Positions 27,396 to 64,000 of a DNA stretch of 64,000 nucleotides are shown here, in pieces. The notes under the pieces were generated by a model. That model was not told the DNA's origin and searched no databases. It worked only from the letters and a program-made list of their open reading frames with translations. The stretch lies in NCBI GenBank assembly GCA_009103225.1, contig RHPI01001715.1:896011-960010 (forward strand), in the 5' to 3' direction. This DNA is from Chlorokybus atmophyticus. Lineage: Eukaryota; Plantae; Mesostigma and Chlorokybus algae. Position numbers and translations under genes: made by a program. Position 1 is the first letter of the stretch. The number at the start of each line of letters is the position of its first letter.

Positions 27396-27571
27396 CTTGC
27401 TAACTGCTAGTCGGCTGCTTAGCTAATGGTGGCGCCGTCGCATCGAATGCGGCCGCCGCCAGGTGGCCCGCCCAAATGTACGAAGCGCGAAAACGAAAAT
27501 GAGGCGGTTTTGAATGTCGAGTGTCCCGCACTAGAGTTGCACTTGTAGTGCGTCCTTCTCTCCTAAAGTTG

Positions 27572-27720
27572 ATGGTACGACTTATGCATTCGTACCATCC
27601 ATGCTTCATACAACAAAAGGTAACAATGGCTTGGGCGTAACATTAATGGTACGACATAGGCATCTTTTGTTCAACCCCAGCCATTGGCGTATAATGGCTT
27701 TGTCGTACCATCCATGGTAT
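27572..27720. promoter_or_regulatory. Cluster of (C)GTACCAT/ATGGTAC(G) sites between divergent genes A and B
   Basis: Sites at 27572, 27592, 27646 and 27705. Confidence 0.5.
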
Positions 27721-27910
27721 GACAAACAGAGGCATTGCTCGACCAGCTGTAATGGGAGTTAGCGTGCACTCACCCAAACAGCTTCATTAATGGCCGGATG
27801 ATGGCGCGCAGGGGCATCAGGTTGATGACGGCTCAAATGTCAGGCATAGTGGACCTGGGTGCGATTGGAAGGCGGAAGACCAGGAGTAGGAGGCGGCAGC
27901 GGCACACATC

Positions 27911-29064: not shown

Positions 29065-30604
29065 TTGCAACATTGCCAGCCATTTTATCCTGGGTCCTAT
29101 ATACAGCCCTCCTTACTGCATGCACAAGTGGTCTCACCTGCCGCACCTGCTCCACTTGCAGCCAGAGCGCATCCAACTTTCGCGGCACCAGTCCTTCATG
29201 CACTACCGTCTCCTCCACGAGCAGCACTAATAATTGCGGGGCAACAATCCTTCTTGACGCAACGGCGAGACCACAGCACAATGCAACAACCAATGTGGCT
29301 TTTGCACCTACCTTACCCCACCCGCTGCAAGTTGAAGCCGGCAGTCTGCCCCAAGCTCAGGTACTTTATCAGTTATTGTGACTCTTGCCGTCGACAATTG
29401 GACACACCATTTGAGTGCTGTATGCGCATGCAGCAGGGGTCATCACCGGCCATCGAGTCATTAGAGGAGCTGGCCGCAACCCGCATATGGCCATTAGTCA
29501 TGCTAGGCGGCCAGCTCGCCTCATATGACCACTTCAATGCGCCAACGAATGGTAAATGCTTCTACCATTGTGTGTTTCGCGCCAAGCTATCCGTAGCGCA
29601 AAGTGTCCTGGATGATCACAAGTGCCCCAACTCGAGCAGATTTTGGGCCATGCTGAACACGCTAAACGACGACGGCAGGGGGGACACTCTCCGCAAAATC
29701 ACCGCTAAGGCTGTCGATGCAGGCGTGGCGAGCGGAATCTTAAACTTCTGCAGAGCCATTGATATCATCGATGCCGCGGGAGATGGCGTAGTATTACGAC
29801 AAACAGCCTGCGACCATGTTGCCTGATGTCAATTGCAACATTGAAATAGCCATGGCCAAGGTGCGACAGATCGTGCGGAGAAAAGATGTGTATGTGGAGC
29901 ACCTGCAAATGACCATGTTTGCCAACAAGCTGAGCTTGTTGTTTGGCTACGTGACCGTTCAGCGCGAGCATAGGGAGTGGGTGCCACGGCCCGGCAGCGC
30001 AGTTTGGGTTGGGAATAAAGAAGCTCCCAACTCACTTCTGGTGGTGGGCAACACTGCTCCTGATGAGCCAGAAGCACACTTTTCGCTCCTCAAGCTTGCA
30101 AGCACTGAACAATGGTATTGACCTATTCATGAAGTGCCACCGGAGGTAACAAACCTGATCGGAGAGTGGTGGAATGGCGTTGCCAATCCCCCGCTACCAC
30201 CGGCTGCAACATAGGGTGCTGCACCAACGCCTCAGGCCTCACCTTTGTGTGCTAGGCAAGAAGTAGCCGACTGTTCTGCACATCCTGCCTCCCCTCAACC
30301 ACGGCCACAGGCTCGCAACAACTCAGCACCCTCCCTTCCTGCTTTGAAGACTTACTCGCCACCGTACTTCGACCATCCGGAGGCATCTCCATTAAGAAGC
30401 AGCGGTAGCTCGCCCTCTCCCTTTAAGCTTGCCACATTAATCCCAGCCTGTTTTGTTGGTAAAGGGATTGATCGAGGTGTCCTGAAAGCTGCGCTGAAAG
30501 ACAAAGGCCACATGCTCGACCTCATAAAGCAACATGAGGTCGTGGAGGAACGGGAGGCAACAAGCGCAAGGCTGTGGAGCAAAAAGATAACGCCTTACCT
30601 TTGA
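29065..30604 (+). pseudogene. OTU-like cysteine protease (deubiquitinase) cargo gene, copy 1
   Basis: Cys box APTNGKCFYHCV, VYVEHLQMTMFANKLSLLFGYV and His box VVGNTAPDEPEAHF. A frameshift near 29820 and stops are present. It aligns with copy 2 at 58216-59127. Confidence 0.72.
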
Positions 30605-32184: not shown

Positions 32185-32310
32185 AGTCGTGCTTCTTGAA
32201 GTGTGACTCATTTAGGGTTCGTAAGCTAGCAACCCTGAATTGATGCCCATACCCTAAAGTGTCGCTCAGTTTGTGGGCAACCGTGCTGATTCATATTTTG
32301 CATAATGTAG

Positions 32311-34018
32311 GCGGCAGCAGTTGAATGCCCCTCACTTAAGAGACCATGCTTGGTGTGCCCACAATGCAATGCTTACGTATGTGCCAATGGCCGTAGGCAG
32401 CAGATGCGAGCACACTTGACCGAATGCCAGCGAGTGCAGACAGTGTGCCACGGTTTTAGTGCTGCTTGCTGGCACCACACCACACACAATGTCGACGCGT
32501 TTGGCTCCCGCCTCGGCAAAGTGCTGTGCAAGGAACGCGAGTTTTTCCATTGCGTGTGCGAACCGTGCTCGCGCTCATGCTTTGAGTGGCAAGGGGAACC
32601 CATGCGCTTCTTCTTCACATGGACAACACCGGGAGATGTGGTTAGTGGACAGGTGGTAGATGCTGTGGAGGTATACTGGCAGAGTGAACAGCGACGTATC
32701 ACTGCATGTTATGTTGGGCGTATGCTCATTTTATGCATGTTGAAGCTATTGTCGCGATTCAGAGCAGTCTTCCACGGTGTGGGTGTGGGCACTTTTACCC
32801 CTGGCCGCTATAGAGGAGGCAGACCATTGACAGTTGAACAGCGCACGTTAACTTGAGATGCGAGCAGCTGATCGGTGTGAGTGTCATGGTGCATTGGCCG
32901 CTGGATGGGGAATGGTATGCAGGCGTTGTGGAATCATTCAAGCAAGTGTCAATTCAGCATCGCTTCTTGGCATGCGATTGAGGACGCATCATATATGCAT
33001 GGTGCAATGAAAAATGGCTTTGCAGGGCAGCACCGTATAATATTCGATGACGGTGATCGACCACAAACCATCAACGTAAAAGGGCACAATGTATTTGCGT
33101 ACACATTAGTTGACGGGGCACGCCATGTTCTTCACGCCGGAGGGGAGAATGTCAGTCGCAAAGTAAGCCCGGACGGCATCATTGCTAGTCCATGGCCAGC
33201 ACCACGGCTAGCCTTGACCACATACACGCCATTTAACAACAAGCTTGGATGCACACGCAAACCAAGGGCACTCAACCTATTCTGCGGCGGTGGCGGTGCC
33301 AGTGTTGGTCTATATCACGCAGGCTTTGATGTGACCGGGATGGACATAAGTTTCTCCTCCTTTGAGTACCTGCTGCCCTTTATACACCGCGATATATGCA
33401 CTTTGAGTGCAAGAGAGCTGAGCGACTACGAGCTCATATGGGCCAGTCCACTATGCCAGGCTTACTTAGGTGCTATCCCGGCACCTTAACGGGCGGCACA
33501 TGGCACATCCTAGAGACACCAAGCCAGGTCAAGTTTGTGATGAGAATGTGCCAAGAGCAGCTTCCTCATTCAAACCCAATCTGTCCCTTTGAGGCACGAT
33601 GTTTGGGCTATCAACTTTTCGACACCGTCTGTTTGGAACACAGCCAATGGTAGCTACCCCAACAGCACGCTGCTCGCACGCGGGCAAAGCGGTTGGACTG
33701 CTATCGCCGCACCTGTCCGCTAGCGCGAAGAAGACAATTGTGACATCAAACGCGCCACAGCAAATGTACCCGGTCTATGGCCTTCAAAGCACCAGGGGCG
33801 GCATTGCTGCATGGCAAACAGCGATGGGCGTGCCATGGATGACCTTGGCCGTTATCATAGCGAATTTAGTGCCTCCCGCAATGGCGGAGTGCATAGGGCG
33901 TCTCATGCTTGAAACAATGGATATGCGCTGTGACTACCCTCCTGTGTTATGGAGCTATGAGGCTGGAGTGTGGTGCACTGTATTGATGCTTAATGCCACA
34001 CGGCTGACTGATTATTGA
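32311..34018 (+). pseudogene. Cys/His-rich domain + Tudor + phage-type C5 cytosine DNA methyltransferase, copy 1
   Basis: CPQCNAYVC...ACWHH...HCVCEPC; Tudor LIGVSVMVHWPLDGEWYAGVVESF|GQHRIIFDDGD; motif I ALNLFCGGGGAS, motif IV WASPLCQ, motif VI DENVP, motif VIII FRHRLF, motif X NLVPPAMAECIG. Contains stops and frameshifts. Confidence 0.85.
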
Positions 34019-34199: not shown

Positions 34200-37100
34200 G
34201 TTACTTGCCCTCATGTACACGGGCGCTGTCCTTGCCAGACATGGGGAGCAGCTGGACAATGCCTTTTACTTGCTCCAGAGTTACGACATCGAGATGTGGA
34301 CGCCCTCGTCGCTTTTCCATTTTAGAGCAATGCACTTTGCGTCGCTCGTCACATTTAGCTTCGTGTATCAGCGGACAAACACTACCTCATTCCACACGCG
34401 CTCGCCGATACCACCCCACACCACCACGCGCAAAAAAAGGAGTGCCTGAGCCCACCACGTCACATTCACACCGTCCTCATCACCTCGCATATATAATTGT
34501 AGGGAACCAAGGCCGCCCATGGAACATCCCAGTTGCGCGCGCCATGCTGACTCCTGATGTCGTGTACACCGCTGCGCCTCCGTTCACCACGCGAACAGCA
34601 CGCCACCCGTTGGCCAACTTCAGTTACTCCCTCCTCAACCAGCTATCCGGTGGCAGGCAGCTTGTCGGCGAACAGAGTCTTCAGGGCGACTTGGCGGCTA
34701 CGAGCAGAACCGCTCCAGTACGAGCCGGTTTTCATCCTTGTCGGCACATCCAACCGAAGCAACTTGTCCGTCTTCTCCGTTACAGGGATCCACGACCATG
34801 CCATCCTCTCTCACATATTCCGCACAGCTCCATGCCTTTGGAATACGCGCCTGGTAGTCCCGGTTGGTGCCACCACGCGCCCACTGTTTGATGTTTTAGG
34901 CATTCGTCTGCTCCATGCGATTGGTGCTGAACCAGCTTGGGTGTCCACCATTGATAATTGCCGGCCCGAAACGAGTGAGCTGATGCATCTTATCGATCTT
35001 CCAACCTGACTTCTGTGCAGAATATGACGACAGTAGCGGATGCAACACTGCAGATTTGAAGGCAGCCAGCACATTGCCGGCTGTGGTCAGGTTTCCTCTT
35101 ATGTGTTCATGCGCCTTCAGCAACTTCTTGTTCCACTAGGTAAGCGATGGAGCAATGGTAAAGAAATTGGTGCCCTCACTGTCGAGCAGCAAACCGTTTG
35201 CAAGGACCGGCAGCAGCTGCAGCACCGCCACTTTCTCCACCACCTGAAAGGAGTGGTCAGACAAGAAGAAATTTATTGTGCTTGTGGGTGCGTTGAAGTG
35301 CGAAACCCGTAAGATCGCCTTGCATGCATTCAGCCTGTGCACATCTGCTTGTGAGCATGTGTTGTTGGCTTTTGTGTTCAACACGAAAGCAACACCAAAG
35401 ACGTGCCTGGCCTGCAGAATCTATCTCGCGGATGAACGCGTGCGTTCATTCGCAGCGTTGTACAAAGCAGCAAGCAGGTGGTCAATGATGCCTCGTAGCA
35501 CGTACATTGCGTCAGGGGCAAGACGAGAGTAGCAATCAGCTCCCAGCACCCGCAACTGTCGTCAACCCCACAGTGCATTTTGTTGCCAAACCACATTGCC
35601 TGGTTACACAAAAAGCCGTTCATCTTCACGAATGCCGGTAATATGACCGTTACCTTCTCGACAGGCATGGAGTGCTGCTATTTGAAAGCCTTGGCTGTTT
35701 GGCGTGCATTCTTAACACCGCTATGCATCCGCCCGCAGCTGATTTATTGCTGGTGTGTAGAAAGCATCGGTTTCCAGTTTTCGGTCCTCATCCATTTTCA
35801 ACAGATATGTTTTGGTGACGAGACAAACATTGCGAGGATGTCGTGTTTAGTTGCCCGACACAGTGCGTGAGTGTGGCAGTCTTCTGCAACACGACAAACT
35901 CAGATGCTACACTGACAACAACCTCCATGCGCTGTCTGCCGGCAGGCTGCATCTGGTTACAACCATGCATGCCCACTACCTGCAAGTCGCTAATGTAGTT
36001 GGCAAGCGCGGGAAACACACGACGCTTGATGCCATTTAGGTCGATGAGCTGCAGACCATCTCAGCTCGCCCGCTTCACATCCCCTAACACTACATCTAAA
36101 GTGTCATAAAATATCTCACGTTTTCGAATTGGGAACGATTTCTTGCCCTGCGCCCAAATGGAATGCCCGGCTACTGCGTGAACCACCGGTAGAAGCGCTA
36201 TCATGACAACCCCAATGTTGCTAGCATACACGTCACAACTGCAATTAACAAGCGATGCCATCAGAGGGTAGCCAGAGCGCTTGCTCACGCTGTTCAGCGC
36301 GGTCTTCTCACTGTACAGAATGGATGGCGCCAAGTAGGACGCTTCCCCCACCTCTCTCCTCAAATCCACCTCCACATCCTTCCACTAATCGCCCGTGGAA
36401 GGATGGCCAAAGCTGTGCTCGTTTCTACTATACTGGATATTGAAGCCATCAGCGGCATGTGAATTGCCATACAATCGCGCGAGCCATACCTGCTCCAACT
36501 AAGAGCATTAACAGGCATCCTGGCCTCAGAATAGATACTGCGTAGATACTTCATTATATACTGCATTTCACAGACCTTGGCCGGCATATATGTAACGCTG
36601 ATGTCCTGATCCTTAGGGTCTTTAAGCTTATGCAGGTCAGCCATCACGTAGTTTTCATACGGCAGCACATTCGCATGTGCATATGTGACATGGCTCTGAT
36701 GGTTGAAGCACATGCACCGCACATCGTGAACACACCTCAGACTGAGAGAAAGCAGTTGTGGTCCGAAGGTAGCTAGCCACATGCACACCGGTCTCCCACT
36801 GGAGTTCTTCCATCAGGAAGTGTGCACTTCGGATGCACTTGATGATCCGCCCCATGCCGGAGGCCGACAGGCCTTGGCCGTTGTTTCACTGCACGAATGC
36901 CACTACAAGAGCATGCTCCGAGCCATACCCGTGCAAAGGGACGCCTCCACTTCCATGTTGGCGTGCCACAGGTTTCTCAAGCACACGCACATGTTGAAAG
37001 CCCTCGTTCATTTCCTCCTCCTCTAGTTGAGCTGTGCGTGTGTCTCCTGGAGGGGTTCTTCGGCATCAAGCATGTGCGCATCCTGGATCGGACTCCCCGG

Positions 37101-37244: not shown

Positions 37245-37402
37245 AGCTCACTACCGACGTCGACACAGGTGTTACCAATGTAACCTGCATCATCATATTT
37301 AGTAACACGCACAGCCGCCGCCGCCGCCGCCACCGACGCCGCTACCCTTGCATGCCAGAGGCGAGCAACTTGGCCGCCATTTACTGGCGTGATGGCTCTG
37401 TC

Positions 37403-37561
37403 GTACCATTATTATGGTACGATTGAGCCATTGCACGTCCAGGGTGGGGTGAGTCTGCATAAATATCCTGATTGAACCGTTTCAATGGTACGGAGATGCC
37501 TTTGCCAAAAGATACCATTAAAATGGTACCTTTGTACAGTGGCAATGGCAATTCGTACCAT
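37403..37561. promoter_or_regulatory. Cluster of GTACCAT/ATGGTAC sites between the divergent transposase and gene F
   Basis: Sites at 37403, 37414, 37485, 37523 and 37555. Confidence 0.5.
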
Positions 37562-37721
37562 TGACAAGTGCTGGCAATGCCAGTCCCTGCACATAAAAAC
37601 ACCATTGATGGCTTTGCCAAGCTATGCCCTTACAGGGCGGTGATGCCAAGGGTATGTGGCGTTTGGTGGATCGGTGGCGGCGCTGCCAGGGGCGTAGTGG
37701 GCGTTGTGGTCGAGGTCCGGG

Positions 37722-43709: not shown

Positions 43710-43925
43710 ATCACACACAAACTGAGTCATTACCAGTGTATAAACCATAGACATATAGTGGCACAATTGCTGCGCCAGCAATGGCATGAGGTGCTCAGCA
43801 GCTGGCTCCAATGCCATTACTGGCACACACCCGGACCAATATTGATTCAAGTATTGAATGTCAGTAATGAAAAATGAACCCTTGCCATTATGAGTACCAG
43901 TTATAAAAGACCCATAGACCCCACC

Positions 43926-47449: not shown

Positions 47450-48000
47450 CTGATTATTCAGGCCAAATGCCCTGAATACAAGCAATGGATATTCACACGT
47501 TTTGGTCATGAATAATTGTAGTTGTCCATCTCGCACACAACCTCCTACATGTGAGTGGTTATTCACTCGCAACAGAACTGCGTATTCAGTCTTCTTAGGT
47601 ATACATGGTTCTAGACTTGTACCATGGCACCAAGTGATTATTCATACTTTGTGTGCGTAAATATTTACAGCGCCTGCCCTCACACTAGGTCCTCCTTATA
47701 GGTAATTATTCACACGCATATTGGCTTAATGTTCACACATATTAAAGCTGTTTCAACAGCACATGTACCATACTAGCGACTGATTATTCATACGATTTGT
47801 GATTGAATAATACAGCATATCTGCTCTCACACATAGTCCTATGTATGAGTGGTTATTCACCCATAGTTAGGTTGAACAATCACTGCTGCCTTTGGTTGAT
47901 TTTCACGCGAATTATAAGTGAATAATACAGCACTTTTGCTCACACACACAGTCCTACACACAAGTGGTTATTCACTCACAGTTTGGTTGAACAATCACTG
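47450..48000. repeat. Degenerate array of TATTCA/TGAATA motifs in both orientations, like CACTA subterminal repeats
   Basis: Recurrent (G/T)GATTATTCA, GGTTATTCAC and TGAATAATACAGC, next to a TnpA-like gene. Confidence 0.55.
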
Positions 48001-48151
48001 CATCTTGCTATCGTCAACAGCTGTGACATAGCATAGCTGTGACATAGCACATAGCAATCAGTCCAGCCGGTGAATTTGGACAGCAATGTTAGCTGAATGG
48101 CAGATGACTCGAACAACAAATTCACTGATGTCTACAATGTATCTCTGCTAC

Positions 48152-50650
48152 CTACTTCTTGCTGCCTCGACCACGCCCACCGCGCCCACCCCGCCCACCC
48201 CGGCTGCCCTTCCCACGGCCCCTCCCGCGCTGTGTGGTTGTGCCTTCCTTTGCTGGCTCCCTCACCTTGATACTCTTCAGCAACCCAACAGGCCAAAGTA
48301 GCAACAATCCCGGCTCGCACTCTGCGCATACATCAACCACACATGAACTCAGCTGACTTGCACAATGTTGCAACTGTTTATGCAATCGCATGCACACAAA
48401 CGCGTTCACCTTTCAAGTGGGTCACTTGCACTCCAACCCCATCACGCTTGAAGCTGATTGGCAGAGGCACAACCTCTTCTTCCCCTGGTCCGGGACGTCT
48501 GGTCCTAGTGATGGGAAGACTGCGGCTGAACTGGACCACAATGTTGCCCTCTCCAATCTTCTTGCCATGAAACTTGTTGACAGGATTGATGTCGCTTACA
48601 TGCGCCTCCCCTATTGGTTCTTTGCGCCCGTTAATGAACAGTTGGACTTCACTGCCAACCTTCATCGTCGGTGCGGTGTCGTCCTTGTCGCTCAGCTCTT
48701 TCTGCGCATGCAAGTGACAAACACATGAAGAGGTACACACATGTGAGCTCTCATACAGCGCTTGCGAAGCGACCTGCCTTCTGCGAGTCGTTGTCGCTGT
48801 TGTTGGGGCTGTCCCCCTCGGTGTCTGGGGCGCTGTCCTTGGCGCCATCTTCACCGCTGTTCTCGCTTCTATCTGTCTCAGGCACTTCTGAATACGTTGG
48901 CTCATCCTGCGCGACAATGTGACACGACGTGTTAACAAGCTTACAATCGTCACGCAACGAATGCGTGCCTGCCGCAGATGACGGTTTGTGTGCAGCCAGA
49001 AGAACGCAAGAAGCCCATAAGATCAAGTACATGGTGCTTTCATACCTCCTTTTGCTTGCCGCTCTTCTTCACCAACACCGTCTCCTGCTTGCCAGTCGAG
49101 TGGCCTGCCTCCTGAGACTTGTAGGGAGCCGGTATCGAGCGAACAATTTTCTTTGTTTTTTGTTGGGGGGGGCTTGACACCTCATCCTCCTGCCAACAGC
49201 ATGAAGTCAGATGGTGAGCCACAACTCCGTGCATTGCCGCTCTATCAAGTCCAATGCTGCGTACCTCACCAGACACTTTGCGCTTCCCTGAGCTGCTGTC
49301 ACGCACATCAGCACCCTGCTTGGCACGTGCCTGAACACAACAGTAATGAACGATCATGAACACATGTTTAGCAAAGTACAAGCAAGAGCGGCATCTGATC
49401 TGTGAACCAGTAGCAGGAGAACTTGAGGGTTGTGGTGCAGTGCCTTCCTTGTTACCTATCGCATACATAAGGCACTGATCACCACAGCCTGCATATACAC
49501 ACAGTACTCCAGCAGCTGCCTGCGCGCGCAAGACGCGGCTCACGCTGCGAGGTGCCATTTCTGTCGTCACTGGCGTCGCTGGCGGGATGTGAACGCGTGG
49601 GCGCCGTGCAATTACAAGGGGTCATCATACACACCACACAACCTGCATACATAAGGCACCATCAAACACAAAGCATCGTTCTTAACACGACATTGACGAA
49701 GCCAACTTTGTGCAAACTGTAGGTCACCCTCTGAGGTGGCATCCTCGTCGTCGCTGGCAGATTGCACTTCTTTTGACTTCTTGGGCTTCTTCTTGTTGGC
49801 TTTCTATCAAGCACATGGCAAAGGCACTCAAGACATGCACATCGCACAAACACCGTAGTCACTACATGACACACACCTTATTGTTCTTGTCGCTAGGCCC
49901 TCCCTTGCGCCTTGGCACAAAGCCCCCCGCGAAAGCCTTCTCCATCATCTCCTTGTAATGCTTCCGACTCTTTTCTTTCTGCTTCTCTTTGTGCTTGGGG
50001 TTGCTGTATCCCTTTTTGTTGCCCAGATACTGTTGAATCTTCAAACGCGCCTACCCACCAATGAAAAAGTTGTGAAGGCCAATACATGCAAAGCAAACTC
50101 CTCCCAGCTCAGACAATGCTGCCATATTGCATGACAGCTCATGTAACTGTGGGAAATTGCTAACCATTTGATACGAGAGCTTTGGATTCAGCAGATGCCA
50201 GCATTTGGTTGCAAGAGCGAACTTGAATGGGTCCTGCTTCGTTTGAGTCTTCCCCGGCATCATGCGACAGTACTCGTAGCAAATCCGGCCTTTGTCGGCC
50301 AGCTTGATGACCTTGCAACGATCACGGGCATGATGCTTCCCACGCCAATGTAGGACCTTCAGTGCCTGCATAGTTTACATTGGTGCACTAGTACAACATG
50401 GGACGAAACAGACTTCGGCAGCAAGGTCTGACATTGATTGCGGATGCTTGATGCATAAGCTCACTTTTAAGGAGACCATTGCTGTGGTCTCAAGATCACG
50501 CAGGTGAACAGTCGCCTCACTGGTTTCCCACTCATGCTGCAGCTGCTCATCAGAAGAACCACCAGCATTGCTCCCCCATATCTCTTCGTCCAAATTCTCC
50601 CATCCTTCGCTGCAGTTGCTGGACCGCCCACCCGACGTGGTGCCTGACAT
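48152..50650 (-). pseudogene. CACTA TnpA-like second ORF (Tnp1/En/Spm C-terminal domain), multi-exon, with stops
   Basis: KVGSEVQLFINGRKEPIGEAHVSDINPVNKFHGKKIGEGNIVVQF...PLP resembles the TnpA C-terminal domain; basic and acidic low-complexity linkers and an RGG tail. Confidence 0.6.
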
Positions 50651-50843
50651 GATGATGCCCTCTTCTAGATAGATCAAGCTTGCTTTACAAGTCAGGTGCA
50701 ACCGCAACCCTAATCAACCTCAAGTCTTGGTTGACTCAAGTGACTGCAGGTTGTAAGCCATGTGGACTTGCTTGTTGACTTGTCACAGCAAGCAAACCAT
50801 GTACCTTGCAAAAGAAGTGTCTCTAAGCTGCTTGCACAAAGGC

Positions 50844-51279
50844 GTGCTTGTGAACTTATTAAACAGGCACCCAGCAAACCAAACACCCAATACCTTGTAG
50901 AGTAGAAGCTTCTTCAGCTTCTTTCCAGCTGAACACGAGAAAGGTAAGCCTAACAGCAAGCTAGCAGGCAAATGGCATGTGCATGCACAAACATGTGCTT
51001 GTGAACTTGTCAAACAGGCACCCAGCAAACCAAACACCCAGTACCTTGTAGAGTAGAAGCTGCTTCAGCTTCTTTCCAGCTGAACACGACAAAGATAAGC
51101 TCAACAGCAAGCTAGCAGGCAAATGGCATGTGCATGCAAAAACATGTGCTTGTGAACTTGTCAAACAGGCACACTGCAAGCCAAACACCCAGTACCTTGT
51201 AGAGTAGAAGCTGCTTCAGCTTCTTGCCAGCTGAACACGACAAAGGTAAGCCTAACAGCAAGCTAGCAGGCAAATGGCA
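50844..51279. repeat. Tandem repeat, 151-bp unit, ~3 copies
   Basis: Units start at 50844, 50995 and 51146 (GTGCTTGTGAACTT...GGCAAATGGCA). Confidence 0.9.
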
Positions 51280-52993: not shown

Positions 52994-54126
52994 CCATTGG
53001 TCTACACACACTTTGTTTGCCCTTTACACTCTGGTTACCGCTGAGCTGCTCTGCTGGTAATTCTCCAAGTGTGGCTGTTGCTTGTGCAATTACTGATAAC
53101 AGTGGGGTGTGTGCCTTTATGCAACTCGGAGATCTAGCAGCAGATCAGCTCAGGCACAACCGCCACAATTGTGTTCACAACAACATAGTGACTAGCAGAT
53201 TAGCTACATTACAACTATACTACACAACAACTACCAAACTACCACCAAACTATACAACTACACAACAACAACAACTACACAACAACCATACAACTACCAA
53301 ACTACCACTAAACTATAGGCCTTGTGCAAGGATGACGCAAAGATCTGACCTTGTACTTTGTATTACCTCATGGCCGTAGCACAGCCTGCAAGGCAAAGCG
53401 GGTTGCGCTCAAAACTGTTGAACACAAATTAGGCATGCAAGCGCCTAACACTGGCAGTAGAATTGCCCAAACATGCTGTTGGAAAAACCCCTCACAACTG
53501 CACTCACATATGCACAAATACAAGGTATGTTTGCGCAGCAAGAAGTGAACACGGACTTTTGCGACACACGCGCGCATACACACACATGAGGGCTTACAAT
53601 CAATTGCCCCAGCTGACTGGATACCATACACACACATGCACATTCATGTGATACGCATGCAAGGATGCATTTATCTGTCCCTGTCGTCGCTGGAGCTCTT
53701 GCCAACTTCTTGGGCACCGTGACTGGCGGTGTCCTGCAAACATGCTGCAGGCAATGCTCAACCTGTTGATAGCAGCTGTAAGAATGCCAAGACACCCAAA
53801 ACACAGAGCCAAATACTCTGATCTTAGTCTCATCCACAAACACACCATGCCTGGCATGCGAGCTCTGGTTTACCTGCTGTCTTGGAAGCAGGCGGCTGGA
53901 TCATCATACCCTTTGTTGAATGCATGCAAGCATCTGAGTCAAGACCAAATACCTACCTCATGTTCGACGAGATCAACTACACTGGACCTAAAGCGACCAG
54001 CCATCGCTGAATGGTAGCTGTTTACCTGTGGATCACACACCGTAGTTAACCAACAGTCGAGTCAGAAATGGAGCAGGCAAATAACTTTTGAGAGACACAA
54101 TGCTAGCGCAAGCACACACAAAAAAA

Positions 54127-54450
54127 CACCTTTTTGCCGCAAGGCCACTGAGGGGTTATGCCCAAGGCTGCCCCAGCGGCTTGCAGCAAACACCTTTTTG
54201 CCGCAGCACAGGCAAGGCCACTGAGGGGTTATGCCCAAGGCTGCCCCAGCGGCTTGCAGCAAACACCTTTTGTGCCGCAGCACAGGTAAGGCCACTGAGG
54301 GGTTATGCCCAAGGCTGCCCCAGCGGCTTGCAGCAAACACCTTTTTGCTGCAGCACCGGCAAGGCCATTGAGGGGTTATGCCCAAGGCTGCCCCAGGGGC
54401 TTGCAGCAAACACCTTTTGTGCCGCAGCATAGGTAAGGCCACTGAGGGGT
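54127..54450. repeat. Tandem repeat, ~73-bp unit, ~4.5 copies
   Basis: CACCTTTTTGCCGC...AAGGCCACTGAGGGGTTATGCCCAAGGCTGCCCCAGCGGCTTGCAGCAAA starting at 54127, 54191, 54264, 54338 and 54411. Confidence 0.9.
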
Positions 54451-54914
54451 GTTGAAGGTATTACATGGGTGATGCTTGTATCCGGTCAGCTTGCCCTTCA
54501 TACAGGAGTCGAGGGTCGAAGGTACCAGGAAGTAGCGCGTGGACTCCAGACTGAGCAAGACGATCGAGTCATGACGGACTCCGGACCAGGCTGCTTGGTA
54601 GAGCCTTGGGAGAAATTGCGTGGCTTTGTGGATACGTAAGCTTAGCAGGCGTGGCTTAGCTTGTTGGAAAGCTCTGGTTGTGAGCTAGACAGCGTAGCTT
54701 ACAGAACAGCAATCGGCTGAGTATAGCGCACGCGGTGCTTGCCAATGTAGACGTGTGTAGAGACTGGCGGGGTATAAAGCCCAGACTTGTTGCAATGAAG
54801 ATAAGAGGTCACGATGTAGCATGTGTGCGGATGCTATGGCGGCAGTAGCAGTCATGCTCTTGTGTTGATGTTGTTGGCGTGTCACTTGCACGTGTGTATG
54901 TCAACAAGGGGTTA

Positions 54915-55840
54915 TGCACAAGGCTGCCCCAGTGAATCACCAACACATGCAAAAAACCAAAACCATAAGGCAGGACACTGAGGGCTTACATGCCGCCCCA
55001 GTGAATCACCAGCACACATTCACAAACTTCAAAACCACAAGGCAGGTTACTGAGGGCTTACAAGCATGCCTCAGCGACTCACCAACACACTTAGAAAAAC
55101 ATAAACACAATGCAGGACACCAAGGGCATGCATGCAAACCAAAACCTCACCAACACAACTAAGTGCACGCAGGCTTGCACGTATCTGCCTGAGTTTCTTG
55201 CTAGGAACTCAAGATCGCTGGCGCCGTCGCCACCGAACTCAAAGACTTCGCCGCCAACCACGGCAACCTCGCCGCCTCCCGGCCACAACCTACAACAACA
55301 TGTCCAGGCGGTTAGGGTTAGGGTTATGACATATGGCGAAACAGAGTCACAAAAACATACACCCAGTCCACACCACAGGGCCGGTCTGAGGTCTTACAGA
55401 CCGCCCCAGCTCCTCACCAACACATTTACAGAAAAACAAAACCACAAGGCAGGACACTGAGGTCTTACAGATCGCCCCAGCGACTCACCAGCACACATGC
55501 ACAGCAACACAAAAACAAGGCAGGTCACTGAGGTCTTACAGACCGCCCCAGTGAATCACCAACAGAATCACAGAAACAAAACCACAAGGCAGGTCACTGA
55601 GGGCTTACACCAGCACACATGCACAAAAACACAAAAACAAGGCAGGTCACTGAGGTCTTACAGACGCCCCAGTGAATCACCAACAGAATCACAGAAAACA
55701 AACAAAACCACAAGGCATGTCACTGAGGGCTTACATGCCGCCCCAGTGAATCACCAACACATGCAAATAACGGAAACCACAAGGCAGGACACTGAGGGCT
55801 TACATGCCGCCCCAGTGAATGACCAGCACACATACACACA
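54915..55840. repeat. Degenerate tandem repeats (~60-75 bp), about ten copies in two blocks
   Basis: AAACCACAAGGCAGG(T/A)CACTGAGG(G/T)CTTACA..CCGCCCCAG(T/C)GA(A/C)TCACCA. Confidence 0.85.
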
Positions 55841-56643
55841 CGCACGCGCACAAACAAAACATGCATGCAGGCAGGCTTGCACGTATCTGCCTAAGTAGCT
55901 CTGCATCAACCAAGGATGGCTGCCGCCGTCGCCGCCAACCTCAAGCACCTTGCCGCCGACCACGCCGCCCACAACCTTTATAACTAAAGACGCTGCCGCG
56001 GCCGACCAAGACAACTTCGCCGCCGACCACAACAACCTCCCCGCCACCAACCTTGCAAACTACAACAACTTACAAAAACAATAGGGCGAGGGTTATGGAT
56101 GCCGGCTATGGCGTCAAAGGTGATAGCCCATCACTGATGGACCATCACTGATGGCACTGACATCAGTTCAGTCCTGCACACTCCAGGTACAGTCTAACCA
56201 TCACGCCAATCCTGACATCCATCAAGCCAGCGTGACAAGACACTCAATGCCCTATATAGAATGCGTGACGCGCGCTACAGTCCCGAGTGTACATTGTGAC
56301 GATTACGCTTATGAGTTAGGGTTTGCTTAGGGTTTTAATGTAGCGATCGAGCAGACAACTTGCAACTGGCAAGGCTGGGCGGCAAGGGCGGCGTTGTTGA
56401 CGAGGTCGGCGGCGGCGTCGGCTTCATTGCTGAAGTGCAAGTGTTGTGTTTTTGCTTGGTTGTTGTAGTTACTTCATTGGGTCCGAGAACCCTGGCGAGG
56501 TGGTTTCTTGCAGCTTCGGGTGGGCTTGCTGGAGGGTTTTGGCACTGCTTCCAACAAGGTGCAGCACATGCCGTGCTTGTCTTTGTTTGCATGCATGCCC
56601 GTTTGCGCATTTCGCTAACTATCAAAAGTGCATGTTGTCCATA

Positions 56644-57022
56644 TTGTTAGCCACCACTTGATGCTAACCAGAGGGGCGGCCTCGTGCGTAAGACCACCTC
56701 TTGCTCAGTTTTTAATCTGTTTTATTTGAGCATGCACTCTTGTTAGCCACCACTTGATGCTAATCAGAGGGGCGGCCTCGTGCGTAAGACCACCTCTTGC
56801 TCAGTTTCTAATCTGTTTTATTTGAGCATGCACTCTTGTTAGCCACCACTTGATGCTAACCAGAGGGGCGGCCTCGTGCGTAAGACCACCTCTTGCTCAG
56901 TTTCCGATCTGTTTTATTTGAGCATGCACTCTTGTTAGCCACCACTTGATGCTAACCAGAGGGGCGGCCTCGTGCGTAAGACCACCTCTTGCTCAGTTTT
57001 CAAGCTGTTTTATTTGAGCATG
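56644..57022. repeat. Tandem repeat, 96-bp unit, 4 copies, upstream of the OTU gene
   Basis: Units start at 56644, 56740, 56836 and 56932. Confidence 0.92.
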
Positions 57023-57289
57023 CAGTTTTCATTATGGCTGAGGCTAAAGTGTGCATGCTCAGGCTTGTCTGCATGCTCAAATAGGGAGCCGTGTGTGTGT
57101 GTGCATGCTCAAGTGCTCATGTTGCTCAACTATGTGTGCTTGTTTTTGGCTGTGAGGCTTTCCTCAGGTCATTCATCATGTCCAAGCGAAAGCTCGTTCC
57201 CCTTGGCCAGTTTAAGCCTGCAGGTAATAAGTATATTCGATGTTCAGCATGATTATTGTTAACATGTGGTAACACTGGTCATGCACACA

Positions 57290-60200
57290 GACAAGAAGCA
57301 CAAGGGTCCAGCGCACAAGAAGGAACCTGCTAAGACGGAAGCTGTCCTGCTGAAACCCTGCAAGAAATCAAGTAATGTAGCGCTGTTCCAGCTGACCATG
57401 CTAACGCATGCTCACTGCGGTTGTTTGCCACCATTGTTGCAATAACACTGTCTATTGCAGACCTTTTTGACACGACAAAGGCTTAGTTGCTAGAGGGGTT
57501 CAATAATTGGCGGAAACTAAGGGAGGAGGAGAAGGCTGGGAAGGCGAAGATGTCCACAGAATACAATTGGGATGTCGTGGTTGAAGTAATGCAGAAGAAC
57601 CTGAATGAAGATTCTCGCTTGCTTGAGCTCGACAAGAACTTGCAGATCTGCCTACGGAAGTTCGTGGAGGACCAGCTCAGGCTTTGTGATCCGGAGGCAG
57701 CTGCTAGGGGTATGGACCTCGGGCATTTTGGCCTTGAAGATGTTTTTACCGATAATGACATCCATGAAGAAACGAAGACAAAGTGGGGAAAGAAATTCTT
57801 TGACTGGAGGAAAGCGAAGGCGAAGAGCAAGAACCTCATGTCATGGGGTGAGCTAGTGGTCTTTATCAAGAAAGCGCTGTGCAAACCAGACTTGGCTTCC
57901 CTCAATCGAGAATGGAGGCTCAAGCTACGGCAGTATGTGGAGGAAGAGCTAAGGCTATGTGATCCAGAGGCAGCTGCTATGGGCATCGACATCGGGGAAT
58001 ACGGTCTTGACTACGAAACAGAGGCGCCCAAGCAGCAAGTGGAGGCCCAAGCCAAGCAGCAAGCCGACGCGGAGGCCAAGCAGCAAGCGGAGGATCAAGC
58101 CAAGCAGCAAGCGGATGCTGAGGCCAAGCAGCAAGCGGATGCTGAGGCCAAGCAGCAAGCGAGCGCGGAGGCCTAGCAGAAAGCTGAGGCCCCACCCAAG
58201 TCCCAGACTACACAAATGCAGAAAGGGCCTCGACCTGAAGCCGGTACCTCTGCTTCTGCTGTTGAACCAGAAGACGGTCTACCTCCAGCAAAAACGGAGG
58301 GCGAGTTAGAGCTGGTTGGGCTGTTGCATGATAAACACCGGCTTCGGCTTTTCGAGGCCTATGCAGATGGGAATTGCTTATATGCCTGCCTTGCCCAGTC
58401 GCGCCCTCGCGTGAACGCTGCGTGTTTGACACGCGCGAACGCAGCGGACTACATGTCTTTTTGGCGAAGCATTGTGCTGGACAATGGCAAACAGCTGCCA
58501 ACAAGAGAGCAAGCGCAAAAGCTTCGGAAGATCTGTGCTGAGCGGGTCAACCTTTATTGGTTGCTGGAGTATCGCAACTACGGGGCCTGTGGTGACATGG
58601 GCCAGGATTACAAAAAGATGGCTAGGAAATATGGCGTAACCAGGGCACTTAACAAAAAGCAACTCAAGACTAAGCAAGATGAAGACAACGCTATAGAGGC
58701 TCTGCAGAAAGTGATCGCTGAAGAGAGCGTTTATGCCGATCAACTGCAAGTGGCGATCATGGCGCACGCTCTTGGCATTCACATCGGTACTGTGCAGCTC
58801 ACTGAGGTTGCCGACGAGAAGCAGTACTGCTGGGAAGCAGAGCACAAGGGCGGCCTCATCGAAGGCGATGACGGGAGGTACTACACAGTGGATGCCAAGG
58901 GAGAGAAGCATTCCGTCAAACCTGTAGTAGTGGTTGTCGGAGATGTTATCGATGTGGCTGGCCATATAATCATTGGCAACACGGATCCAAGCAAGCCCAG
59001 CGCGCATTACATGTCTGTTGGTGATGCAAATGGTATACTCTCTTGGCAGCGCAGCAACATGCCACCAGAAGTCCTGCGCTTGATGTACCCTGCAGATGCC
59101 GAGCCCCAGCCCCAGCCCCAGCCCTAGCAGCAAGCCCAGCCCCAGCCCGAGCCGCAGCCCCAGCCCCAGCCCAAGCAGCAAGCCCAGCCCCAGCCCAAGT
59201 AGCAAGCTGATGCCGAGGCCAAGCAGGCCAAGCAGGAAGCCAAGCAGCAGGCCAAGCAGCGGCATGAGGCGGAGGCCAAGGCCAAGCTGGATGAGGACAA
59301 TGCCAAGCAGCGGCAGGAGGAGGCCGAGGCCAAGCAGAGGCAGGAGGCGGAGGCCAAGGCCAAGCAGGATGAGGCCAATGCCGAGGCCAAGCAGAGGTTG
59401 GAGGCCGAGGCCAAGCAGCAGCAGGAGGAGGCCAAGGCCAAGCAGGATGAGGCCAATGCTAAGGCCAAGCAGGAGGAGGCCGAGGCCAAGCAGAGGCAGG
59501 AGGCGGAGGCTAAGGCCAACGAGGCTAAAGACCAGCAAAGGCAGGAGGCTGAGGCCAGGAGCCAGCAGGAGGCTGGCGCTATGCAGGTTGATGCCGCTGT
59601 TGAGGAGGCTGATGCTATCAGTGATATGTCAATTGACATCAGCACCGCAGCAACCAGTGACACCAGCGACACCAAGAAACGCAGATGTCGCCCGTCACGC
59701 CGCCAACAGCGAGCTGCTTTGCAAAGGGACAACACGCCTTCCGGTGCTTTCCAGAAGCTGCATCGTGTGCAACAGGGGGGGCGCACCGTGGACGAAAAAC
59801 ACGCGCAGTTTGCACAATTGTGCGGGGTGGCAAACACCTGCGTTGAGCTGGTGCCTAAGGCCCTTAAACTACAACTGTTTCTCCAGGGACTCAGGAAAGT
59901 AGTGCGCATTGGCGTGCCCAAGGGTCCTTGCAACCAAGATTGGAATGCTGATCAGTTCAATTTGCTTGTGTCAGATGCCAAGACTTATAAACGGACCTTG
60001 CTTGTTAAACAGCAAGCACACCTCCTAGATCGTTCAAAGTTAAAGTTCGGCAAAGCAAGGCCAGGCAGGTTGCAGAAATTGGAGCGACTGGAACAAATCA
60101 ACAGTCGTTGGGAGGGCAAGAAGCTGGCACATCAAGCTGCATATCAGCGTGAGCAGGAGATGATAGCTGCACAGGAGACCCTTGAGCAGCAGGAGCAGCT

Positions 60201-60339
60201 GCGTAAGCAGCTGAAGCGGCAGAAGGTGGAGGAGCGCCAACAGATAAAGCAAATGGCTCAGCAGGGAAAGGAGCAGCGGAAGCAGCGGCGGGAGCAAAAG
60301 GAAACACAGCAGCCACAGCAGCCGCAGCAGCAGAGGTAG
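57290..60339 (+). pseudogene. Large OTU-like deubiquitinase cargo gene, copy 2 (tandem N-terminal domain, OTU, QP/EAK repeats, gag-like segment, Q-rich tail)
   Basis: One reading frame from ~57460 to 60339 broken only by TAG at 57484, 58174, 59125 and 59200. Motifs YADGNCLYACLA, VYADQLQVAIMAHALGIHIG and IIGNTDPSKPSAHY. Confidence 0.82.
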
Positions 60340-61957
60340 CTGTAACAGCAACCTCGAGGTTGTTCACTTCACAACTACCAGCTTTGCAGGTTGGAACACG
60401 CATGGACACTGCTTGTACAATAGCAAAAGTTGCAAGTATTGCTCTCGTTAACATCTGCTGATGTTGTGTTTGCAGGAGCCTTTGCTACCTCACCATGCCT
60501 GTGCAGAATTAGAGAGCTTGTGTTAAGAACGAACATCTATCGTTCTCGCAGCGTAGGGCCAACCTCATGTGTAAGTGTATATATAACATCAAGCTGATCA
60601 CAGAGGCATCTTCTAGATTTAGCCCTCTGTTTTCTCATTCCCGATTCGGGTCTGAGCTCCTGCTGAATGCAGAGGCATCCTCGTGAATAAGCCCTCTGCT
60701 TGCTCATTCTGTCTTTGCATGCAGAGTGTAGGGGCATCACCCTGTGATTAAGTCCCCTTCTTGCTCACTTTCTTGCCCCCTTCTTGCCTGTGCCACCTGC
60801 TTTCGCTGCTAACCAGCAGGAAGTGGAGGTGTTTTTCCAGGTGACATGACAGGAGCTTAACATGACAGGATAGAGGAAGTACAATTCCGAAATCTTTGTG
60901 CAATCCCGAGGTGTATATGTCAGCGGATATGGTGACTTAGCCTTGGACATGGGGTGTGTAAGGTTGGCAAAGTATACAACCAGTGTGTTAGCTTTAGCTG
61001 CCTGTCTGTGTGTGTCGAAGGATTGCAGCAAAATGCAATCACCCACATCTGCCTGTCCTTGTATGCTTTGGATCATCCCGACTGCACGCAGGTTCACTGC
61101 GAACGCACCGCCTTGGGAGCCTTGCTGGCTGCTGTTTGTATGCAGTCACGGCGCACAGGTAAGTGTGTCGCACTTGTAGAGTGGAGGTGGTAACAGAAGT
61201 CCGCAGTAAGTCATGAGGTATGCATCGCTCTCGTGCATATACTAACTGTGATTGCATTTCACCTTCTCAACCACCTCCAGCCTCTGCATGGAACTTGTTG
61301 GTCGCGATCTGCTCCAGGGCTTTTGGATGGACGGCGGTTGTACCTACCGCTGGGGTTGGGTTGCTGTTTGTGATATGGCAACACAGGCTGGCAGTCCTTC
61401 TCCCCCCACCCACCCGAGAGAACACCTGTTGCTGCTGTTGACATGCCGCCCTCGTACTGGCACGCCCTCGTACTGGCCCCGGCAACCGCTAAAACCGGGC
61501 ATGTGTCCAAAGATTGCACGCAACCAAAGGCATGCGCACAGCAACCTAGAAGTTCTCCTTCTCCGCCCACCCACCCGACACAAAACCTCCTGCGGGTTTA
61601 CTGCGAACGCAGGATGTGGTCCTGCAGAGCCGTCTCGCGCAAGTCACGTACTGTAGACTTTGTGCACTTGCTCAGGGCCTCTGGTTCATGACTTTCGCGC
61701 GTCAGCTTTGGTTGGACCATACCCTGCGTTCTCAGTGAACCCGCAGGAGGTCTAGTCTCGGGTGGGCGGACGGCGCAACAGGGCATGAAGGTGCTCTGGA
61801 AGAGACCCTGCCCAGCAGGTCAGTCTTTCCCGTGCTGGCAAACAGAGGCATCCTCGTGATTAAGACCTCTTGCTAACTTTATAAGGTCGCTCATTCTGTT
61901 GTTGAGTTTGAGTTCAGGCTAACAAAGTGGCCAGCAATCAAGAGCTACCTCTACCTT

Positions 61958-63585
61958 TCAGTAAAAAGGAGGGTAATCAACAATGAAGCCTATTGCTTCC
62001 AGCAACAGCCTGCCTACATGTTCAGAGTAAGTTGGTGGAATGGCATTCTTAACTTCCGATTCCGCATCCATCCACTCCACCTGCATGGCAGATTGCCACC
62101 CTGCAATCGTGCCACGGCAGGATGCTTGGCCGTACACCGGGTCAATTTGCCTCTCCCCAGGTAGCAACTGCCGGCGCTGCTCCGGGTGGGTGGCCAGCTC
62201 TCCAAGTGCACAACCAGTGTGGTTGCATTTCAGGTCTGAGTGCAGTGGAGGGTTTGTCTCGAAGATGCGATAACGATACACATCCAACTTGAACATGGTG
62301 CCACACAGCTTCAGGTGAGTTGTCATGTGTCCTGTTGCGCCTGCGACATTCTCTATCACCTATGGCTTGCCGCTCAACTGCAACTTGGCTCTTACGGGGT
62401 CAATCAGGTTGACGTGCTCCCATCGATTGCCGTACGCGGAGCGCTGTGTAGTGGGAATGACCCCACTTAGAGCTTGACATGGAGGACTTGCCCACACCGC
62501 AGCGTATGCTGTCGGGTCAGCGTCCATTGCATCCATCTGGCAGAACTTGAATGGGTATGACGGCTGTGACTTGTTGTCGATGCCCTAAACATTAAACCCT
62601 GCCCTGTACAGACCCATGGCTACACCACTAGCGCCGCAAAAGCAATCCAGTGCGCGCGGCCTGCAACGTCTTCCGTTTGATTCTATTAGTGTGCGTGTGA
62701 TCAGAGGGGGTGGGGGCTTGGGCCATCGATCGAGCTCTCGACCAGGCAAGTCTTGCAGTTTCAGACAGCTTTGACCACCAACACGAACCATTACGTCGTA
62801 ACCCTCACGCACAGCTGCCATGTTCCAGTTCTGTATCAAGATGTGGTGCAGCCGTGGGTCCTCAACGAAATCGTCGTACTTGATGGTATGTTTTCCTGAG
62901 CCACATGTTTGCCTGAGCCGGTGCTTGCATGAGCGTGCGCATGTAAATACTCTGCAGTATACCTGTGTTGGCATCAGAAGTGATGATGTGGCCTGCATAC
63001 CAGGAGCTCATTCCTGGCCAGTACACCACAACGCGGCATGCTACCAAAGACTGCCCCTCATCAACAAGCTCCTTCCGCCAAGCAGCCAGTGTCGCGACAT
63101 CGTCGACAATCGCGTTCCCCTTTGGCATTCAAGAGTAAGTTGGTCATGCATGCAAGCGCTGTTTTGCTGTTTGCAAGGACAGTTCAACTCACCCTGTTGT
63201 TGACATCGTCTTCGATTACAGTGGACTTGCCGCGACCGTTGCGCACGAGCTGACGTCGAACCACATTGCACATCTGCCCATCGTGATATGCTCCAGGCCG
63301 TGCCCAAGGCAGGTGATTCATGGGCTCGCCGTCCCACTCAAACTTGGAAAGCGAGCACTATAGGCAAGTGCACTCCTCCCAAAAGAAATCGGGCCTCATG
63401 CATTGTGCCAGCAGTCTGCATTGCCTCACATTGTCCCCCCTTGCCTTGTGGTGCCAGCAGGCTTCAAAGAAGCCATACTGCTCACTATACAGCTTGCACT
63501 TCTCTTCATGCTGTTGCAGACATCTGTTGTTGCCATTCCTAACCAAGTATGCTTTGCAGAAGCTACACACTTTGACGCCGCGCAT
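61958..63585 (-). pseudogene. Cys/His-rich domain + Tudor + phage-type C5 cytosine DNA methyltransferase, copy 2
   Basis: VCSFCKAYL...EACWHH; Tudor LVACRVVVYWPGMSSWYAGHI..|GKHTIKYDD; ALDCFCGASGVA, GIDNKSQPSYPFKF, WASPPCQ, GKP*VIENV, LCGTMFKLDVYRYRIFE, AMQVEWM, NAIPPTYSEHVG. TAG stops at 63358, 62585 and 62360. Confidence 0.9.
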
Positions 63586-63874
63586 GCTGGCGCCACGCTA
63601 CCTGGCTCACAAACCCTAGAAGCTAATGCACTTGACGGAAGAAAAAAAGGAGCACGTACGCAAATTGTGGAGCATATCCGGATTGACTTTCCGGCGTGTT
63701 TTGAATCGGGATTGGATGTGTCCTAAACCCTAATTTACGGTAGGCAGTCATGACGGCGGCGACGGCGGCGGTGTCAGCGGCGGCAGCGTGCCTGCAGGTC
63801 TTTGCTTTGGCTGTATGGAAGTTGATTGGAAGTTGCTTGCAGTATGTTGGCTAACTGCTTTTGATGTTTGTAGC

Positions 63875-64000
63875 ATGAGCTACTTTCGCAGGTGTTTTTG
63901 CCGCGACCGCAAAGGGAGCAAAGTGTTCATATACAACCACATTAGAAGGGCTGAATATCATGAAAAATCTGGCAAAAACATGTGGTGTGGCACTCCAGAA
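63875..64000 (+). CDS. Start of a gene divergent from MTase copy 2, with a CxC...H motif; truncated by the window edge
   Basis: The ATG follows an intron-like CTAAC...TAG; translation MSYFRRCFCRDRKGSKVFIYNHIRR. Confidence 0.4.
   Translation, partial: MSYFRRCFCRDRKGSKVFIYNHIRRAEYHEKSGKNMWCGTPE

Follow-up and report, generated by a model that had tools for sequence, protein, structure and literature searches.

A second, decayed pair of OTU-like and Tudor-methyltransferase genes in Chlorokybus atmophyticus, probably carried by a giant DNA transposon

We analysed a stretch of 64,000 nucleotides from the alga Chlorokybus atmophyticus (assembly GCA_009103225.1, contig RHPI01001715.1, positions 896,011 to 960,010 of the forward strand), hereafter called the window and numbered from its first letter. 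The window is eukaryotic; its left part contains spliced genes for GCN5, with an acetyltransferase domain and a bromodomain, and for an oxysterol-binding protein. At its right end, two converging genes were found: OTU-2, which encodes a putative OTU protease, and MTase-2, which encodes a predicted C5 cytosine methyltransferase (MTase) with a Tudor domain. We read this region, from 56.1 to 64 kilobases (kb), as the left-hand portion of a copy that broke recently and belongs to a second, old family of giant, cargo-carrying DNA transposon of the Plavaka/CACTA type, and we give this reading a rough probability of 0.6. The broader view that both genes are transposon cargo is one that we hold with good confidence. 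It draws on a homologous gene pair, OTU-1 and MTase-1, which lies approximately 30 kb away, beside a Plavaka transposase. The genes and their main parts are as follows.

56.1-64 kb: copy 2 (element 2), OTU-2 and MTase-2, convergent
57178..60345, plus strand: OTU-2 gene model, exons 57178-57223, 57291-57371 and 57461-60339, predicted GT-AG introns
58340..59090, plus strand: OTU-like protease core of OTU-2, DGNC with the Cys codon at 58375 and SAHY with the His codon at 59005
63193..63585, minus strand: MTase-2 exon 1, Cys/His-rich region, premature TAG at 63360
62963..63119, minus strand: MTase-2 exon 2, first half of an RDM15/PDS5C-type Tudor domain
61920..62895, minus strand: MTase-2 exon 3, second Tudor half, linker and C5-methyltransferase domain
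27.6-37.6 kb: copy 1 (element 1), OTU-1 and MTase-1, tandem, beside a Plavaka transposase
29500..30181, plus strand: OTU-1 core (NGKC...AHF), frameshifted and with stops
32353..34012, plus strand: MTase-1, Cys-rich region, Tudor and C5 domain, with frameshifts and stops
35980..36444, minus strand: Pfam-matching part of a broken Plavaka transposase gene (PF18759, E 1.1e-15, 58 bits)

Homology of the two gene pairs

The initial annotation had described the right-hand pair as a highly diverged copy of the left-hand pair in a different arrangement. The motifs that it quoted were all present (YADQLQ at 58732-58749 and GNTDPSKPSAHY from 58975 in OTU-2; ACWHH, FEWDGEPM, the Tudor domain and FCGA/PPC/ENV/RYR/NAIPP in MTase-2), and its account of the orientations, convergent in copy 2 and tandem in copy 1, was correct. 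When 56300-64000 was compared in six frames with 1-56299 by tblastn, MTase-2 (63585 to approximately 61920, minus strand) aligned with MTase-1 at E 2e-41 over the catalytic domain and 2e-14 over the Cys-rich region. Piecewise alignments of the two proteins scored 175, 91 and 386, as compared with shuffle maxima of 70, 50 and 58 (0/1000 shuffles for each piece), so that the two genes can be aligned over every domain, as had been proposed. The blastn comparison gave zero matches between the two gene pairs, in agreement with the reported lack of obvious nucleotide identity. The Tudor intron had been placed at about the same position in both genes; the acceptor indeed fell in the same Gly codon and phase, whereas MTase-1 had no canonical donor at the matching place.

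The similarity between OTU-2 and OTU-1 was weaker. The pair was absent from the six-frame tblastn at E<=1, and blastp aligned pieces of the two at 20-24% identity (pairwise E 3e-5 and 1e-4 for two OTU-1 pieces). When OTU-1 was read through, with X at the frameshift, the alignment scored 91 against a maximum of 52 in 1000 shuffles, with 26% identity over 195 columns, and a search of 1008 window chunks with OTU-2 placed its best five matches all within the OTU-1 region. We conclude that the claimed homology holds and that only the protease core is alike, where the Cys box (DGNC/NGKC) and the His box (SAHY/EAHF) were kept in both copies.

We found that the identity at codon positions 1/2/3 was 40/53/24% for OTU and 52/64/32% for the MTase catalytic domain, and that identical fourfold sites numbered 6/30 in OTU (amino acid identity of 26%) and 19/49 in the catalytic domain (amino acid identity of 41%). 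Silent sites are saturated or nearly so, yet the proteins can still be aligned, which indicates that each gene was under purifying selection at the protein level during a long divergence in the past. Because the fourfold sites are saturated, the ratio of non-synonymous to synonymous rates (dN/dS) between the families is not estimable. The suggestion that the pair was retained through long divergence is supported to this extent by the saturated sites, by the two alignable proteins and by the existence of further paralogues of both genes. The accompanying suggestion of a selected functional module went further than the data, since two copies from one ancestral element amount to one event and leave a cooperating module unproven. 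No other gene common to 44.9-56.3 kb and the copy-1 region was found, so that OTU and MTase are the ones that were kept.

The methyltransferase, its Tudor domain and the OTU-like protein

MTase-2 was modelled as three exons starting from 63585 on the minus strand, with predicted splicing and zero frameshifts. Exon 3 encodes the motifs FCGA, PPC, ENV, RYR and NAIPP in this order (model residues 269, 321, 365, 391 and 467), which fall on conserved alignment columns and which we take to be C5 motifs I (FxGxG), IV (PC), VI (ENV), VIII (RxR) and X. The Pfam match was weak (E 0.016). The predicted structure reached a predicted local distance difference test score (pLDDT) of 76.5, and its superposition on DNMT3B gave a Z-score of 15.3 and a root mean square deviation of 3.4 over 205 aligned residues; the Z-score with M.HhaI was 15.1. 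The best 19 rows of this comparison were chains of the C5 cytosine methyltransferase family (Z 11.0-15.3), followed by a row from another family at 8.9, and all 40 matches listed by Foldseek were C5 methyltransferases. By modelled fold and motifs, MTase-2 is assigned to the C5 methyltransferases, with a predicted activity.

Among 472 candidates, 73 were short stand-alone relatives of MTase-2 (164-291 amino acids; 34-46% identity, mostly 35-44%), and the sole exception above 46% was a partial match of 55%, P0004. Additionally, 324 of 50,697 phage records matched, mostly from phages of Actinobacteria, and among the longer relatives (21 of 7994 scored) were fusions to phage polymerases, one protein of Pithovirus and two proteins with a reverse transcriptase. 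All 94 homologues found were short prokaryote/phage-type proteins or their fusions, and identity to DNMT3/DNMT1/MET1 was 11-18%; from its sequence, the enzyme appears to belong to this short phage/prokaryote-type C5 clade. A quick tree of 96 rows, which contained no eukaryotic DNMT, grouped MTase-1, MTase-2 and the metagenomic P0004 (Shimodaira-Hasegawa-like approximate likelihood ratio test 92, long branches), and both genes are likely to stem from a single capture. P0004, the nearest relative of MTase-2, covered 57% of the query at 55% identity and lay on an 8.5-kb metagenome contig. In two further metagenomic proteins of 1.9 thousand amino acids (P0095 and P0096), a methyltransferase of this short C5 clade was fused with a reverse transcriptase, and P0095 also had a PHD-like finger; both branch apart from MTase-1 and MTase-2, which points to an independent capture by a retroelement.

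The region encoded by exon 1 showed a Cys/His pattern of CxxC..HxxxC, a second Cys cluster and then FEWxGEPM, and is likely to bind zinc. No family or structure matched it, and a Cys-rich part was found in 0 of the 94 MTase homologues (best E 0.067). Four loci (L001-L004) carried only relatives of 37-38% identity, and the record of L001 did not match the Cys-rich profile.

The first-half exon of the MTase-2 Tudor domain matched one PDB entry, 7DE9 (E 0.058), which was also the sole match for the first half of the MTase-1 Tudor domain (E 3e-4). This entry is the Tudor domain of RDM15/PDS5C bound to histone H3 monomethylated at lysine 4 (H3K4me1). The RDM15 cage is described as W616, Y623 and Y641, with the acids D643 and D645 (PMC8184781). 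In the spliced MTase-2 model, W165, Y172, Y190 and D192 reproduced the RDM15 spacing of W-x6-Y-x17-Y plus Asp, which also supports the intron model. The split exons gave no Tudor match in Pfam, and the second Tudor half searched alone gave no match. The domain is predicted to read histone marks, probably H3K4me1.

The OTU-2 model comprised approximately 1000 codons with zero frameshifts and predicted splicing, and its core was bordered by low-complexity Gln/Ala/Glu/Lys repeats. Two further features accompany it.

56644..57024: four tandem 96-nucleotide units (4.0 copies, 97% matches)
59743..59895, plus strand: half of a retrotransposon-gag-like domain in the OTU-2 frame (PF03732, E 0.003, under the curated cut-off)

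The tandem units likely lie within a 5'-leader intron of the gene. Eight PDB matches to OTU-2 were obtained at E 0.09-1.4, of which four were OTUB2 and two were fragments of viral polymerases that aligned at the Cys box. No relative of OTU-2 was present among 1.84 billion representatives or in viral contigs. OTU-2 is likely, though not firmly established, to be an OTU protease, with deubiquitinase activity predicted.

Vehicles, decay and alternative explanations

The transposase beside copy 1 scored far above the PF18759 cut-off of 26.3 bits, and its broken gene appeared to begin near 37250. The candidate ends of the two elements are listed below.

27570..27750: left ATGGTAC cluster, inverted homologue of the right cluster
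37390..37620: right ATGGTAC cluster, with the part homologous to the left cluster at 37.4-37.5 kb
32100-32190: third ATGGTAC cluster, before MTase-1
56128..56225: cluster of eight CATCA-like units, including two CCATCAcTGATGG palindromes

The three ATGGTAC clusters covered 1.3% of the window and held 14 of its 18 ATGGTAC sites. The left and right clusters aligned in inverted orientation with a score of 52, as compared with a maximum of 32.5 in 200 shuffles, and are likely the decayed ends of element 1. Each cluster lies upstream of an element-1 gene. By analogy with VANDAL elements, for which motif binding by an element protein is described (bioRxiv 10.1101/2025.02.11.637652), a protein encoded by the element could bind at these clusters. 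Terminal-repeat searches returned candidates at chance level only, and element and host sequence could not be told apart by regional depletion of CG and CAG. Broken genes border the element-1 clusters at 25700-27400 (minus) and 37700-38600 (plus) and may be further cargo; the tested frames of the left one had no family match.

For element 2, the CATCA cluster is a candidate left end or subterminal array. PlavakaB elements have the ends CATCA..TGATG (PMC12730594), and the cluster lies just upstream of OTU-2, as the left cluster of copy 1 lies before OTU-1. It could not be aligned with the ATGGTAC clusters. The transposase of element 2 is predicted to lie beyond 64000. Between the converging ends of OTU-2 and MTase-2, we observed an inverted repeat of 79 nucleotides (61544-61622 / 61714-61792, 77% complementary). 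A probable gene without a family match, divergent from OTU-2, occupies 53400-56090 on the minus strand and may belong to element 2; it contains tandem arrays of 73 and approximately 70 nucleotides (54139-55830) and a duplicated GCC-rich start (55164-55262 and 55866-55964).

In copy 2, premature stops interrupt both genes, which the initial annotation had overlooked. There were eight in total, seven TAG and one TGA, with zero frameshifts: TAG at 57484, 58174, 59125 and 59200 in OTU-2, and four in MTase-2, whose frame is not intact in the window copy, namely the one in exon 1 and TAG 62587, TAG 62362 and TGA 61960 in exon 3, where the next stop is at 61921. Two public contig sets, from two runs and two studies, matched the copy-2 stretch at approximately 97-98% identity; the best 40 of 276 rows were examined for the MTase region and 40 of 45 for the OTU region, and the contigs of run X2 leave most of the OTU core uncovered. 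Run X1 had C at 59125 and 59200, which restores Gln at two of the eight stops. Among 62 listed differences, the window was on the T/A side of a transition in 34 cases and on the other side in nine (p 2e-4), and its T/A-side transitions were enriched at CG and CHG sites among the matches listed (odds 2.7, p 0.008). Codon changes relative to the public contigs looked neutral, with eight synonymous and 37 non-synonymous among the matches listed. These patterns fit a copy that was recently inactivated, is methylated and drifts neutrally. In both contig sets, 23 other letters replaced the 96 letters at 60886-60981, and 27 letters were missing at 60508.

In both runs, and among the matches listed, contigs approximately 87% alike were found over MTase-2, and contigs approximately 83% alike were found at the Cys, middle and His segments of OTU only, so that both genes have further family members.

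A number of observations weigh against our reading of copy 2 as transposon cargo or against the functions assigned to its genes. No right end for copy 2 was found in the window, the edge of which element 2 reaches; 0 of 76 frames from 44.9-57.2, 60.3-62.0 and 63.6-64.0 kb matched a transposase family, and no transposase like that of copy 1 was present for copy 2 within the window. An exact terminal repeat or target duplication of copy 1 was not found either. The gag-like piece and the repeats of OTU-2 have no counterpart in OTU-1, and the flanks of the two OTU cores differ. The OTU label stays under every threshold (Pfam E 0.35; PDB E 0.09-0.7), the fold model of this protein is unusable (pLDDT 38), and the residue two positions after the OTU His is Met or Ser, where Asp or Asn is usual. 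In MTase-1, the catalytic motif reads PLC instead of PPC. At the position of RDM15 D645, MTase-1 has Asp (FDDGD) and MTase-2 has Val, so that monomethyl specificity may not hold for MTase-2. Finally, the codon differences of the paralogues (six synonymous and 11 non-synonymous among the matches listed) gave no clear sign of purifying selection.

In the main rival reading, the two genes share a vehicle and do separate jobs, each being useful alone and the two travelling together only through descent from one element; we rate this as a serious prospect, though the less probable one. The single ancestral event behind the two copies and the restriction of OTU likeness to the core are both compatible with it, as are the public contig sets, which show extra contigs, and loose ends at 63686 and 63942, in the MTase region while 59540-61855 is one contig. 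OTU domains are also described as riding alone on Helitrons (PMC11417382). It is less easily reconciled with the absence of any other gene common to both regions and with the paralogues of both genes, which among the matches listed occur in both runs at similar divergence (83-87%) and at a similar contig depth of approximately 9-15, a quantity that is not a copy number.

Somewhat unlikely, in our judgement, is a different vehicle for copy 2, whereby the cassette was taken over by a DNA transposon of another superfamily or by a giant non-autonomous element. The lack of a Plavaka transposase near copy 2 within the window and the failure of the CATCA and ATGGTAC clusters to align would follow from such a switch, and precedents have been described in red-algal cassettes that change transposon families (bioRxiv 10.1101/2025.02.11.637652) and in giant non-autonomous elements of Ectocarpus (PMC12477816). 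The fit of the CATCA cluster to PlavakaB ends, together with its placement upstream of OTU, speaks for the Plavaka-type vehicle instead.

It is improbable that copy 2 is a domesticated or native pair of host genes, disabled in this strain only. The clean GT-AG models without frameshifts, the Gln codons in a public contig at two of the stops and the missing transposase near copy 2 within the window would suit a host pair, but diverged paralogues occur in the same runs, the homologous pair adjoins a transposase, premature stops are spread over both genes, and OTU-2 has no relative among the representatives searched.

Still less probable is an origin of the pair from a giant virus that became endogenised and left this remnant. 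Pithovirus LCPAC201 has a methyltransferase of the clade in question (E 1e-17, 35% identity), the two weak matches of OTU-2 to polymerase fragments are viral, and viral orphan DNMTs are reported in eukaryote genomes (PMC12344493). Against this stand the spliceosomal introns and plant-type Tudor domain, the absence of a viral family in the 76 nearby frames, the Pithovirus proteins, which branch elsewhere in the tree, and the lack of an OTU-2 relative in viral contigs.

A genetic code in which TAG means Gln, so that the genes would be intact, is hardly credible: the predominance of TAG among the stops, several of them at Gln positions of repeats, would agree with it, but the single TGA stop aligns with a Trp, host exons encode Gln by CAG, TAA appears to terminate the oxysterol-binding-protein gene, and we rejected the idea because run X1 has C at 59125 and 59200, the two sites seen.

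Other repeats and genes were observed elsewhere in the window. A multi-exon gene at 48200-50700 (minus) had no Pfam match, and its last exon presumably recalls a TnpA-type accessory domain of CACTA elements; a tandem array of three 151-nucleotide units lies upstream of it (50829-51279). Motif clusters at 43450-43900, 47050-47380 and 47400-48060 (TGCCAGT; TTATTCAC) resemble the ends of other repeats. The region 18480-21710 has short inverted matches near its ends (18569/21501 and 18822/21709) and two divergent gene-like starts, and is possibly another element. At 11600-13150, a small gene is tandemly duplicated approximately 975 nucleotides apart with 76-85% identity, and a perfect palindrome of 94 nucleotides follows the duplicate (13319-13412).

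Proposed mechanism and comparison with known systems

If both genes are transposon cargo, a mechanism in which they condition chromatin has, in our estimate, slightly less than an even chance. An ancestor would have fused a short prokaryote/phage-type methyltransferase with a plant-type Tudor domain and a Cys-rich module, and the fused gene would then have acquired spliceosomal introns. The Tudor domain would dock the enzyme on methyl-lysine chromatin, probably H3K4me1, where the methyltransferase would modify cytosines on and around the element, and the OTU protein would strip ubiquitin off histones or element proteins, blunting silencing or degradation. Both activities may favour expression and persistence of the element, and such an aid to persistence would explain why the genes were retained after the saturation of silent sites and the inversion of one gene. 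In Klebsormidium, CG methylation is reported on active gene bodies, and CHG and CHH methylation on silent transposons (PMC5890265); self-methylation could thus mimic a gene body.

A stronger version, in which the transposon built an H3K4me1-guided de novo methyltransferase of phage type and a deubiquitinase as a writer-plus-eraser module, is doubtful. If true, the module would disguise the element as an active gene body and block ubiquitin-dependent silencing, and a histone-reader DNMT would have arisen on a selfish element independently of DNMT1/3, CMT and ChloroDNMT. Through reader-fused DNMTs, histone marks are coupled to DNA methylation; orphan DNMTs acquired laterally are said in a 2025 survey to lack companion domains as a rule (PMC12344493). 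A phage-type enzyme joined to a plant-type Tudor domain on a transposon, and kept in two families whose silent sites are saturated, would show how such links arise. It would also make testable whether transposon methyltransferases serve for hiding or for being expressed, and the domains are small and amenable to assay. In the literature, neither a fusion of a Tudor domain with a C5 methyltransferase nor the pairing of such a gene with OTU on a DNA transposon was found described, with Repbase, supplements and subscription journals outside the scope of the search. Giant algal transposons with epigenetic cargo are already published, which limits the surprise.

In particular, Plavaka elements have been reported from both chlorophytes and streptophyte algae (PMC13519894), giant repeats of Amoebidium are flanked by Plavaka elements (PMC11244446), and Ectocarpus has giant elements with ParB-methylase genes, as well as a Gypsy element for which the first occurrence of a Tudor domain in a transposon is claimed (PMC12477816). 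The giant Plavaka elements of red algae, as described, carry a PAG1-3 cassette, an N6-adenine methylase with SET and a ParB with a 2-oxoglutarate oxygenase (bioRxiv 10.1101/2025.02.11.637652). The elements described here resemble them in the Plavaka transposase of element 1, the large size, the several chromatin- or DNA-modifying accessory genes with motif arrays beside them, the mostly degenerate copies and the long-kept cassette, and differ from them in the cargo, which is a C5 methyltransferase-Tudor gene and an OTU-like gene instead of PAG1-3. The fungal TET/JBP transposons, including PlavakaB, also belong to the CMCT clade with DNA-modifying cargo and share the CATCA end motif with the candidate end at 56128; in contrast to TET, which erases 5-methylcytosine, the MTase is a predicted writer with a histone reader (PMC12730594).

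Transposon-borne C5 methyltransferases in algae, with self-methylation proposed, are also known from the DNMT retrotransposons of Symbiodinium and Klebsormidium. Those enzymes are described as intronless domains within retroelement polyproteins, Dnmt3-related in Klebsormidium (PMC5890265), whereas the MTase genes described here are separate and spliced, belong to the short phage-type clade, probably lie on DNA transposons and include a Tudor domain. With the short C5 methyltransferases of actinobacterial phages and Pithovirus, they share approximately 39-44% identity in the catalytic domain, the motifs and a short variable region; the phage and Pithovirus enzymes are single uninterrupted frames without a Cys-rich or Tudor extension. 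The Tudor domain resembles those of RDM15/PDS5C and MSH6 in cage residues and spacing (PMC8184781; bioRxiv 10.1101/2024.10.15.618488), but it is fused to a methyltransferase and not to cohesin or repair proteins. The Helitron OTU domains show an OTU-like protease as recurring transposon cargo, on a different vehicle, and OTU-2 differs from those described there (PMC11417382) in having no detectable sequence relative. We take the pair to add a variant to the known giant DNA transposons of algae that carry epigenetic accessory genes, and for it we infer the mechanism outlined above.

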